From positions 11,951 to 75,950 of the forward strand of contig DATEAH010000009.1 of assembly GCA_035288465.1 (NCBI GenBank): 64,000 nt of DNA. Direction: 5' to 3'. Origin of the DNA: Patescibacteria group bacterium. GTDB lineage: Bacteria; Patescibacteriota; UBA1384; DATEAH01. The notes beneath the pieces are model-generated. The model searched no databases and was not told where the DNA came from. It worked only from the letters and a program-made list of their open reading frames with translations. Position 1 is the stretch's first letter. Every line of letters starts with the position of its first letter. Positions 13,940 to 16,780 of the stretch are shown piece by piece. A program made the translations under genes and the position numbers.

Positions 13940-16780
13940 TTAGATCACAAAATTTATTAAACGGTTTGGGACCCAGATCGTTTTTTTTATTTTTTTATCA
14001 GCCAATAACGCCAAAATATTTTTAGATTTTTTCGCCAGTTCAATTATTTCTTTTTCCGAAATTCCATTGACCACTGTTAATTTATCTCGAACTTTGCCAT
14101 TAATTTGCACTACTACCAAAATATCTTTAAGTTTGACTAATTTCTCATTAAACTCAGGCCATTGTTCTTCGAAAATGGGATTTTTATGTCCTAATTTTTG
14201 CCATAACTCTTCAGCCAAATGCGGAAATATCGGTGCCATTAAAATCAGGATTTTTTCACCAGGCTTTTTTTCGTGATTAAAATATTCCATCATTGCCGAA
14301 ATTGCGGTATTTAATCGAAAATTTTCTAAATCTTCTGTCACTTTTTTAATCGCATGATGTAGCAGTGGTGTTTCATTTTGACCAAATTTTGTCCCCCAGA
14401 CTTTTTTCAAAAACCTAAAAATACCCAAGATGCCAGAATCCATCCATTCCGAATCCTCATCAGCCGGACCGATAAACATTTCATAGCCGCGTAAAGCATC
14501 GGTGCCATATTTTGCCACCAATTCATCTGGCGAAACAATATTGCCTTTGGATTTGGACATTTTTGCACCTTGATAATAAATCATGCCAATGTTAAATAAT
14601 TTGCGAAATGGTTCGCCATCTGGATCAAAATTAGTTAATTTGAAATCGTGTAAAAATTTACAAATAAATCTCGCGTATAATAAATGCATCGTGGCGTGTT
14701 CAATACCACCAATATATAAATCAACCGGCAACCAAAACTCGGTTTTTTCCTCATCAAAAGCTTTTTCAGAGTTTTTCGCATCCGCGTATCTTAAATAATA
14801 CCAAGATGAACAAACAAATGTATCTAAAGTATCGGTTTCTCGTACAGCTTCGCCGCCGCATTTTGGACATTTGGTTTCTAAAAATTCTTTATCGTGTTTT
14901 AATGGAGAACCGCCAGTCGGTTTAAATTCAATCTCTTTTGGCAACACCACTGGCAGCTCATTTTCAGGTACAGCCATCTCACCGCACTTATTGCAATATA
15001 TAATAGGTATAGGGGCACCCCAATAGCGCTGCCTCGAAACCAACCAGTCTCGTAAATGATAAGTGGTGGTTTTTTTAGCTTCGCCCTTTTTCGCCAACGA
15101 GCTTGTAATCTTAATTTTTGCTTCATTAGAATCCAAGCCATCAAATTCACCCGAATTTATCAAAATTCCCGTCTCCTCATAAGCCAAATTTTCATGATCA
15201 ATTCGGTCAAACCACAAATCTAATTCTGCACAAGTCATTCTGGCTGGAGTAATTTGCTCGCGAGATAACCATTCAATCTCGTGTTTTTCTTTTTCTTCCG
15301 CAGAAACTGGTACGCGCTCGTCATCAATCAATTCAAAATACAAAGCATTCGTCATCGCCTGCCGATTGACATTTTTGTGAGCGGCATAATATTCGGAAAA
15401 AACCAGACCGCCTAAAAATCGAGTGAATTTAACATTCACAAAACCGGTTTCTTCTTTAATTTCTCTTTTGGCTGCCCCTACTAAATCTTCGCCATCTTTT
15501 GCGCCGCCAACCACAAAAGCGATCCAGGGTTGTTTTTTCCAATTCAAACAGAGGTATTTTTTAGTTTTTGGATTGAAAACTATGGCATGGACTGAATTTC
15601 TTTTGGCAATTTCTTTTCCGTCTTTGGGTGGATTTTTAGAATCAATTCGATGGGGGATAATGACATCTTTTATCGGTAAATCGTATTTCTTAGCAAATTC
15701 AAAATCGCGCTGGTCATGAGCTGGCACACACATAATTGCACCTGTCGCATAATCTCGCAAAACATAATCCGCGACCCAAACCGGGATTTTCTCGCCATTT
15801 ACCGGATTAACCGCGTATGCACCCGTGAAAACGCCAGTTTTTTCACGAGTCGTAGAAGTTCTTGCTATTTCCGAATATTTTCCGGCCTTTTCCACGTATT
15901 CCGCCACCGTCTTTTTTTGTTTAGGAGTAGTAATTTTAGCCACCATTTCGTGTTCTGGGGCCAAAACTAAATAAGTGGCGCCAAATAAAGTGTCGGGTCT
16001 GGTGGTAAACACCTCAATAAAATGTTTCGAATTTAATATTTGAGATTTAGGATTTGTTTCGAATTTCGAATTTCGAATTTCGAATTTAATCGTTACTCCC
16101 TCAGAGCGTCCAATCCAATTTTTTTGCAAGATCTTAGTTCGTGCTGGCCAATCAATTTTTCCCAAATCCGCTAATAACCGATCGGCATATTTAGTAATCT
16201 TAAAAAACCATTGTTTTAAATCTTTTTTGACCACTTTTGAACCGCAACGTTCGCATTCACTTGCCACCACCTGTTCATTAGCCAAAACCGTGTGGCAAGA
16301 TGGACAAAAATTAACCAAGGCTTTTTTGCGATATGCCAAACCCTGTTTATATAATTGCAAAAATAACCACTGCGTCCAGCGATAATAATCAGGGCTTGAG
16401 GTATTAATTTCTCGTTCCCAATCATATAATGAACCAATTTGTGCCAATTGTTCTTTAAATTTAGAAATCGCAGTCTCAGTAAATTCCGCCGGATGAGAAT
16501 TTTTTTTAATCGCCGCATTTTCCGCCGGCAAGCCAAAAGCATCAAAGCCCATCGGATGCAAAATATTTTTACCTTTTAAAATTTGATAGCGCGTCCAAAT
16601 GTCAGACAAAACATAGCCTCGCCAATGCCCCACATGCAAACCTTCCCCAGATGGATAAGGGAACATATCCAAACAATAAAATTTGGGCTTTTTAGAAAAA
16701 TCCACGGCCTGATTTAAATTATTCTTGGCCCAAACTTTTTGCCACCTGGATTCAATTTTTTGAGGATTATAATCTGTCAT
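13940..16780 (-). CDS. leuS: leucine--tRNA ligase carrying an inserted NUDIX domain (aa ~375-535) and a repeat-derived low-complexity insertion (aa ~231-254)
   Basis: HIGH (LHVGH), KMSKS, CP1 editing [10 protein letters not shown]; Nudix box [23 protein letters not shown] between IKDVI and [12 protein letters not shown]. Confidence 0.9.
   Translation of the reverse strand: [946 protein letters not shown]
16019..16090. repeat. intragenic in-frame copy of the palindromic repeat family inside leuS, including (TTCGAAT)x4 7-bp tandem repeat
   Basis: Sequence …GAGATTTAGGATTTGTTTCGAATTTCGAATTTCGAATTTCGAATTT… matches arms of intergenic copies; encodes [21 protein letters not shown]. Confidence 0.5.

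Follow-up and report, generated by a model that had tools for sequence, protein, structure and literature searches.

A Nudix domain within the editing domain of a patescibacterial leucyl-tRNA synthetase, and its possible role in clearing synthetase-made nucleotides

Few enzymes have been studied as thoroughly as the aminoacyl-tRNA synthetases, whose quality control is classically the editing of amino acids, before and after their transfer to tRNA. Accessory catalytic modules in class I synthetases are known in kind: the CP1 editing domain of leucyl-tRNA synthetase (LeuRS), and the N-acetyltransferase joined to isoleucyl-tRNA synthetase (IleRS) in the NCBIfam family 'ileS_w_GNAT' (NF040702), both of which act on the amino-acid or tRNA side. 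We describe here the leuS gene on a 64,000-nucleotide stretch of DNA (the window in what follows) from a Patescibacteria group bacterium (assembly GCA_035288465.1, contig DATEAH010000009.1, positions 11,951 to 75,950), whose product carries a complete Nudix domain inside CP1. Such a module would act on nucleotides; it is a new functional type of accessory domain and belongs to an uncharacterised Nudix subfamily.

As far as architecture is concerned, the best precedent for combining a synthetase-type Rossmann fold with a Nudix domain is NadM-Nudix (2QJO), in which an adenylyltransferase of the HIGH superfamily is joined to a Nudix part that breaks down an adenylylated nucleotide belonging to its own pathway (PMC7824862). 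It differs in being a terminal fusion of the NAD pathway with a Nudix part of the ADP-ribose pyrophosphatase subfamily, whereas the LeuRS insert is internal. Among single Nudix enzymes, the hydrolases of diadenosine tetraphosphate (Ap4A) and other diadenosine polyphosphates (ApnA), that is, lupin 1F3Y/1JKN, human NUDT2, Aquifex 3I7U, Thermus thermophilus Ndx1 (1VC8) and Mycobacterium tuberculosis Rv2985 (9CXX), are only 15-22% identical to the insert, and the sequence match to lupin 1f3y covers little beyond the Nudix box region. Unlike these enzymes, the insert has a motif of its own ([FY][FY]xxxKxxNR), an N-terminal extension of the type NPPxxGKxxxxR and a place in or beside synthetases; it is known here from sequence. 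It likewise differs in domain context from RppH/NudH (Escherichia coli 4S2X, 6D13, 7SP3), and it scores below the cut-off of the RppH model. The Enterococcus faecalis MutT/Nudix protein 2AZW, of undetermined function (PMC5389931), shares 14-15% identity with the insert and is a free-standing protein of a bacterium outside the Candidate Phyla Radiation (CPR). Sequence matches in the PDB do not exceed 34 bits: the best is the lupin Ap4A hydrolase (33.8 bits, in the box region), followed by the decapping effector AvrM14 (33 bits, over nearly the full length). Our literature search, incomplete in its coverage, turned up no account of LeuRS or any other synthetase with a Nudix domain; the architecture itself is already present in public databases, annotated automatically as 'leucine--tRNA ligase' or 'class I tRNA ligase family protein' with a precomputed PF00293 match.

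The insert and its host synthetase

The host gene encodes a bacterial-type LeuRS: its product scores 994 bits against the equivalog hidden Markov model TIGR00396 (cut-off 548), which places it in that family, and 770 bits against the LeuRS of T. thermophilus (1h3n). Pfam recognizes the class I catalytic core, the editing domain (PF13603, 225.6 bits), the anticodon-binding domain and a NUDIX domain (PF00293). Judged by their motifs in an alignment of 58 LeuRS homologs, both insert-bearing and insert-free, the synthetic site (HIGH, KMSKS) and the editing site (T-rich motif, conserved Asp) are intact. The features of the gene, in the order of its translation and with residues given as amino acids (aa), are as follows:

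13940..16780, minus strand: leuS, bacterial-type leucyl-tRNA synthetase and host of the insert; one uninterrupted open reading frame (ORF) of 946 aa
16625..16636, minus strand: HIGH motif of the synthetic site (HVGH, aa 49-52), invariant in the alignment
15653..16123, minus strand: section of the CP1 editing domain that precedes the insert (aa 220-376), matching positions 1-148 of the 185 in the PF13603 profile
16022..16072, minus strand: 'site B' loop (aa 237-253), empty here and occupied by Nudix copies or a Ser-hydrolase domain in other CPR LeuRS
15989..16006, minus strand: T-rich motif of the editing site (TTRPDT, aa 259-264), invariant or nearly invariant in the alignment
15704..15718, minus strand: HDQRD of the editing site (aa 355-359), with D359 invariant in the alignment
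15185..15652, minus strand: inserted segment (aa 377-532, HRIDSKNPP...DRIDHENL), made up of the Nudix domain, an N-terminal extension and a C-terminal helix
15242..15604, minus strand: PF00293 NUDIX match (aa 393-513), 52.5 bits in the whole protein
15440..15508, minus strand: Nudix box (aa 425-447; E431, R439, E440, E443, E444), an exact fit to GX5EX7REUXEEXGU
15362..15391, minus strand: subfamily hallmark [FY][FY]xxxKxxNR (aa 464-473), an aromatic pair and KxxNR 17-26 residues past the box
15059..15184, minus strand: section of the CP1 editing domain that follows the insert (aa 533-574), a flank that aligns to T. thermophilus LeuRS; second PF13603 stretch
14549..14563, minus strand: KMSKS motif of the synthetic site (aa 740-744), invariant or nearly so in the alignment

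A first, sequence-only reading of the window had claimed a complete Nudix domain with an intact box at 15176-15658, and the analysis bears this out: these coordinates translate to aa 375-535, and the PF00293 score, which rises to 56.1 bits when the insert is excised, lies well above the cut-off of 21.1. AlphaFold2, given the insert alone, returns a model (predicted local distance difference test score, pLDDT, 94.2) with the strand and helix order of the Nudix fold, an alpha/beta/alpha sandwich whose box lies on a loop-helix-loop. In the model of the whole LeuRS (mean pLDDT 90.5, predicted template modelling score 0.81) the insert region reaches about 90-97, and the sole low-confidence stretch (pLDDT < 50) is aa 242-251, within the site B loop. 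That a surface loop of CP1 holds a complete Nudix pyrophosphohydrolase domain is, as regards the Nudix identity, close to certain.

The figure of about 160 extra residues given by the same reading also stands. In the alignment to T. thermophilus LeuRS, residues 374 and 532 pair with residues 362 and 375, so that 157 aa face 12; and the 156 aa from 377 to 532 replace 10 aa (DGKEQKELKE) of P0006, the insert-free LeuRS of a syntenic relative, between the conserved 'VIxP' and 'AYxxxG'. Across 120 LeuRS the length of this loop is bimodal, either 5-26 or 150-160 aa. What has to be corrected is the position, which had been given as after the end of CP1: because the PF13603 match is broken by the insert at profile position 148 of 185 and resumes with the flank (aa 532-735) that aligns to T. 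thermophilus residues 375-578, the insert lies inside the editing domain. Here we take the T. thermophilus editing domain to extend to residue 417, residues 375-417 being still part of it. An 18-nucleotide direct repeat (15/18 identical) is found at both ends of the insert, at 15188-15205 (RIDHEN) and 15632-15649 (RIDSKN). We considered it as a target-site duplication or insertion scar, which it probably is not, the repeat not being general: a 3-mer common to both junctions occurs in only 9 of 54 homologs and the RID repeat in three, the peptide repeat being limited to a small subclade (P0043, P0051).

The leucine-specific domain, present in the LeuRS of E. coli and T. thermophilus, is variable and membership of TIGR00396 does not depend on it. 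Its ca. 55 aa are missing from the LeuRS of the window, where residues 735 and 736 pair with T. thermophilus residues 578 and 633 (about 14570-14576), and are equally missing from all 120 closest LeuRS homologs, with or without a Nudix insert. The Nudix domain as a stand-in for the lost domain was therefore rejected, the insert-free relatives being without that domain too.

A synthetase-associated Nudix subfamily

The inserts form a large and distinct Nudix subfamily, associated with tRNA synthetases and recognizable by a clear sequence signature. In 224 domains from all hosts the hallmark retains its Lys in 218, its Asn in 212 and its Arg in 200, and the aromatic pair (YY in the window, F or Y in the family, 17 and 18 residues after the box) is nearly invariant; a conserved Arg ahead of the first strand and the NPPxxGKxxxxR extension complete the signature. 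According to the model the hallmark spans a strand end and a hairpin. In Nudix enzymes the X-loop is the position of the substrate-specificity motif (PMC5389931); the position of the hallmark would fit it, and its sequence matches none of the catalogued X-loop motifs. The three metal-binding glutamates of REUXEE are kept in ca. 96% of the 224 copies: 157/161 at the loop occupied in the window (site A), 20/20, 3/3 and 1/1 at three other LeuRS loops (sites B, C and D), 5/5 in prolyl-tRNA synthetase (ProRS), and 28/31 in free-standing proteins. All seven key residues of the box are present in 133 of the 161 site A copies, and a minority of copies deviate in the box (E to Q, R to M/A). Because the box residues are conserved although the domains share a mean pairwise identity of only ca. 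34%, selection appears to act on catalysis, and the domain is predicted from its intact residues to be catalytically competent.

The spread of the insert was surveyed in three ways. Among the 120 best LeuRS matches, 53 have the same insert at the same loop, in bins that carry the labels Berkelbacteria, Uhrbacteria, Kaiserbacteria and 'Patescibacteria group'. Scanning one genome for each species, with a 9-sequence alignment, yielded 230 loci with a coding sequence related to the insert, so that at least 230 species-level genomes have one, a lower bound given that the scan used only two peptide patterns. In the best 80 of these loci the domain lies in a LeuRS-sized ORF without exception (80/80), in Saccharibacteria, Moranbacteria, Uhrbacteria, Paceibacterota, Wildermuthbacteria, Yanofskybacteria, Magasanikbacteria, Taylorbacteria and Minisyncoccia, besides a few bins with implausible labels. 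A word-indexed protein search with the insert alone gave no matches; an exhaustive search of 1.84 billion cluster representatives, with a profile built from 35 inserts, gave 163 matches at E <= 1e-30 and 512 at E <= 1e-10. The best 150 of the 512 representatives comprise 117 LeuRS or LeuRS fragments, one class II ProRS, two multi-Nudix proteins and some 30 short proteins, many of them just the domain with a Met at its start. In a neighbour-joining tree built on the LeuRS core (120 sequences) the presence of the insert is clustered, with at least 10 changes against 39 for shuffled labels; the three nearest core relatives of the LeuRS of the window, one of them syntenic with the window, are without insert.

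Within LeuRS the subfamily occupies four sites, with one to three copies per protein:

Site A, the loop of the window in CP1: 161 copies
Site B, the CP1 entry loop: 20 copies, in some proteins as a tandem pair
Site C, close to the CxxC hairpin (about aa 629-646): 3 copies
Site D, past aa 667: a single copy

Copies in one protein are only 20-45% identical, whereas site B and D copies reach up to 63% identity to site A copies of other proteins, which argues for repeated insertion or relocation from one pool and not for recent tandem duplication. Three copies are found in P0121, P0122, P0026 and the LeuRS of locus L052 (two in tandem at the CP1 entry loop and one at the loop of the window). P0127, a protein of 379 aa, is built of Nudix copies in tandem that share 75% identity. 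As dimers are common among Nudix enzymes, multiple copies in one LeuRS may pair up.

The same subfamily is carried by five clusters of class II ProRS (641-674 aa; P0252 and P0271-P0274), inserted between the anticodon-binding and the ProRS C-terminal domains (loci L087, 2906-4837, and L088, 2762-4693); the closest insert-free relatives of these ProRS are labelled Nanoarchaeota or Woesearchaeota. Free-standing members were examined in eight sampled gene neighbourhoods, half of which adjoin synthetase genes: P0140 ends 2 nucleotides ahead of a leuS that itself bears an insert, P0217 ends 3 nucleotides ahead of an insert-free leuS, P0184 lies two genes upstream of a Nudix-bearing proS, and P0209 starts 13 nucleotides past argS and ca. 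600 nucleotides before an IleRS-like gene. Next to the other four are fpg/MutM, a second Nudix gene, several small genes in a row, and a gene of the uridine-kinase family. With a random-locus expectation of about 10% within two genes (a rough estimate), four of eight beside leuS, proS or argS is well above chance. Fusion, adjacency and both together thus all occur, a Rosetta-stone signature of a functional link between this subfamily and synthetases, which we consider likely.

The surroundings of P0209 (locus L093, 1-12498) are rich in nucleotide-related genes. They comprise, in order, a Nudix gene (285 aa), thymidylate kinase, a zeta-toxin-like kinase, a second Nudix gene (180 aa), dUTPase and argS and, after argS, P0209, the IleRS-like gene, a further Nudix gene (141 aa), a protein of the metallo-beta-lactamase fold, PNPOx and an ITPase-type NTPase. 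The cluster holds four Nudix genes including P0209, and the product of the IleRS-like gene (1184 aa) has itself an inserted phosphatase domain, His_Phos_1.

Nudix is also not the only enzyme domain inserted in CPR LeuRS. A census of 40 long LeuRS found Nudix in 36, a YdeN-type Ser_hydrolase in nine, HAD_2 in four and Ham1/ITPase in one. The Ser_hydrolase inserts are at site B or after about aa 601 (P0017, aa 609-789; P0081, P0082 and P0171, aa ~240-400); the HAD_2 phosphatase of P0132 occupies aa 654-808; and the Ham1/ITPase of P0152 (aa 984-1167) is full-length with 197 bits and lies between the catalytic core and the anticodon-binding domain. All six of these proteins bear a Nudix insert besides the other enzyme domain. 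At the loop of the window two further LeuRS, P0013 and P0059, have non-Nudix inserts of 121-125 aa; their interpretation as decayed Nudix domains is unsupported (E 0.025 and 0.22).

What the domain may do

Our tentative explanation, the best we can offer, is that the insert is a tethered Nudix hydrolase that clears a nucleotide made by its own synthetase. When Leu-AMP is attacked by ATP or another nucleoside triphosphate (NTP) instead of tRNA, Ap4A, related dinucleoside polyphosphates (ApnN) or adenosine tetraphosphate (p4A) would arise as side products; a Nudix domain borne by the mobile editing domain, beside the site of adenylate formation, could cleave them and return AMP and NTP to a cell that would be reliant on nucleotide salvage and have few other disposal enzymes. 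Since the domain occurs at four loops, in ProRS and as a separate neighbouring gene, it would serve as a tether that raises the local concentration, not as a sealed channel of fixed geometry. The sequences show what the domain is, that its catalytic residues are intact and widely conserved, and that fusion and gene adjacency tie it repeatedly to synthetases; its activity, its action on a nucleotide made by the synthetase and the identity of this nucleotide as an ApnN are inferred, the last with marked reserve. Clearance of Ap4A in cis is the most chemically sensible of the specific hypotheses and our best single guess, with generic house-cleaning as a close rival.

Synthetases are known producers of Ap3-5N, for which Nudix enzymes are a main route of removal, RppH for example acting on Ap4A (PMC7705103, PMC10148737). 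The idea of Ap4A clearance gains indirect support from the subfamily being tied to synthetases of both classes, by fusion as well as adjacency, and the aromatic pair with the cluster of conserved basic residues is compatible with a dinucleoside polyphosphate as substrate. The best sequence match in the PDB is an Ap4A hydrolase, and an aromatic residue of the subfamily may stand at the place of the marker Tyr of ApnA hydrolases.

Several observations weigh against this explanation. The rule for ApnA hydrolases (Dunn et al., as summarised in PMC5389931) asks for a conserved Tyr in the X-loop, exemplified by Tyr87 of the human Ap4A hydrolase, and the aromatic position that may correspond to it in our subfamily is Y or F, not a strict Tyr. 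No library places the domain in a characterised family: the best NCBIfam Nudix models stay far below their cut-offs, with NudB at 26 bits (103), NudE at 23 (169) and RppH (NF001938) at 19.5 (116); and fold matches past 2azw form a flat, generic plateau. LeuRS is not known to rank with the strongest producers of Ap4A. It is also not listed in PMC7705103 and PMC10148737. The close syntenic relatives without insert show no adjacent Nudix gene, which implies that the function is dispensable or supplied elsewhere. Finally, the Ham1/ITPase, HAD and Ser-hydrolase inserts of the same LeuRS lineages, and the free members in the dUTPase/ITPase/Nudix cluster and beside fpg, fit house-cleaning equally.

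That rival, although somewhat unlikely in our estimate, survives best. It holds that the domain destroys oxidised, deaminated or otherwise non-canonical NTPs, or NDP-X compounds, and was fused to LeuRS only for constitutive co-expression and gene economy in a minimal genome, with no chemical coupling to aminoacylation. Besides the LeuRS-borne Ham1/ITPase, HAD_2 and Ser_hydrolase domains and the IleRS-like gene with its His_Phos_1 insert among Nudix, dUTPase, thymidylate kinase and NTPase genes, it can appeal to the free members next to fpg/MutM and the uridine-kinase-family gene, to the flexible site and copy number of the insert and to its absence from closely related genomes. The preference for LeuRS is, however, extreme, the 117 among the best 150 representatives being joined, as the only other host seen, by another synthetase; co-expression alone predicts terminal fusions to many hosts, not repeated internal insertion in one enzyme; and free members are enriched beside leuS, proS and argS. 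The near-invariant motif is also the subfamily's own and not MutT-like: neither a MutT, NudB nor any other equivalog model matches at threshold, and no MutT model is among the NCBIfam matches at E <= 0.01.

More improbable is an RNA-directed role, in which the domain would act on or bind an RNA 5' end as RppH and decapping enzymes do (triphosphorylated or Np4-capped RNA, or an odd 5' end of tRNA-Leu), or would offer an extra surface for tRNA. Its location on CP1, which handles the acceptor end of tRNA, and the missing leucine-specific domain speak for such a role. The insert-free relatives, however, are equally without the leucine-specific domain, mature tRNAs bear a 5' monophosphate, three other loops and a topologically unrelated place in ProRS are also used, and the score of the RppH model is far below its cut-off.

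Slightly less probable again is a non-catalytic domain, be it a nucleotide sensor or allosteric regulator of the NrtR type or simply a structural insertion tolerated by an insertion-prone loop. The loops of CPR LeuRS do accept many unrelated inserts, including those of P0013 and P0059 at this very loop, a minority of copies have a variant box, and the repeated changes of insert presence on the core tree would suit a domain of this kind; against this stands the conservation of the three glutamates and of the seven box residues described above.

A role in pre-transfer editing, namely the hydrolysis of mis-activated aminoacyl-adenylates such as norvalyl- or isoleucyl-AMP from the synthetic site, had been suggested by the sequence-only reading and is very improbable. 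LeuRS, ProRS and the neighbouring IleRS-like protein are editing synthetases, it is true, and the domain lies within an editing domain; but an aminoacyl-AMP, the acyl-phosphate of a nucleoside monophosphate, offers Nudix enzymes no diphosphate bond to cleave, a free member adjoins argS although arginyl-tRNA synthetase does not edit, and the fully conserved CP1 editing site leaves no editing gap apparent.

Practically negligible, finally, is the idea that a frameshift, a chimeric assembly or a mis-joined contig has made the apparent insertion: the identical 946-aa protein with the same gene neighbours is encoded on at least eight contigs of independent assemblies (several ENA assemblies and one JGI metagenome assembly), the reading frame of leuS is continuous and its composition uniform (GC and third-position GC of 0.389 and 0.321 in the insert, 0.377 and 0.339 in the rest of leuS), and dozens of orthologs with 47-60% identity show the same architecture, so that the artefact feared in the sequence-only reading, of which the window has no sign, was not found. 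This composition also gives no support to a recent horizontal acquisition of the insert, which we had considered.

Two irregular homologs were encountered elsewhere. In the complete Saccharibacteria chromosome OY970318.1 (L018) leuS is split in two ORFs (2877-5764 and 2142-2855) with a 13-nucleotide overlap in the N-terminal extension of the Nudix domain, probably by a frameshift error of the assembly and not as a true split gene; directly upstream of the broken leuS lies a gene for a 237-aa protein with a degenerate Nudix-like box. P0046 has a 248-aa internal duplication of LeuRS sequence at the same loop of the editing domain, which may be an assembly artefact.

If ApnN is indeed the substrate of the tethered hydrolase, this would be the first synthetase to carry its own disposal enzyme for its alarmone-like by-products, and it would offer a direct handle on the long debate between Ap4A as a signal and Ap4A as a damage product; should a non-canonical NTP be the substrate, the fusion would show how minimal genomes bundle house-cleaning onto essential proteins. 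In either case a large, uncharacterised Nudix subfamily with a strong genomic association has been defined, and recombinant protein allows direct tests. A wider view, which is speculative and on balance unlikely, would see the synthetases of ultrasmall prokaryotes (CPR and probably DPANN) as hubs for nucleotide damage-control hydrolases: the Nudix domain would then be a third, nucleotide-side quality control that destroys ApnN or aberrant nucleotides at source, and the Ham1, HAD, His_Phos and Ser-hydrolase domains would be parallel solutions.

Other genes of the window

The remaining features of interest, ordered by coordinate, are:

6742..7440: RNase III gene
7560..8108, minus strand: stand-alone Nudix gene (182 aa), PF00293 61 bits; overlaps the end of nusB and lies next to the RNase III gene
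8041..8514: nusB
8587..8964, minus strand: gene for a 23S rRNA intervening-sequence protein, PF05635 78.5 bits
10994..12097 and 12366..13229, minus strand: Ala/Pro/Glu-rich ORFs in the high-GC block, no Pfam match
13022..13702, minus strand: collagen-repeat ORF in the high-GC block, Pfam Collagen 26.7 bits
18079..20458, minus strand: restriction-modification pair, an N6/N4 methyltransferase (529 aa) and a HinfI-type endonuclease (262 aa), between the DAGK/tRNA genes and a PPIase gene
20552..20625, minus strand: tRNA gene, Rfam RF00005 65.7 bits
21182..22498: gene for the CCA-adding enzyme, ca. 4.4 kb upstream of leuS

There is indeed a stand-alone Nudix gene, as the sequence-only reading had it, but in the orientation of leuS it is downstream and not upstream. 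The implied link with the insert falls away: as donor or partner of the insert the gene was rejected, the two sharing only 31% identity over 78 aa, and the stand-alone protein, without the subfamily motif, belongs to a different subfamily. The restriction-modification pair is missing in L097, an otherwise syntenic relative, and therefore looks like a mobile insertion. Immediately downstream of leuS (11000-13900) is a block of about 55-64% GC in a genome of ca. 36% GC. This block recurs on independent contigs with variable gene sizes, and L097 has a collagen-like gene near leuS.

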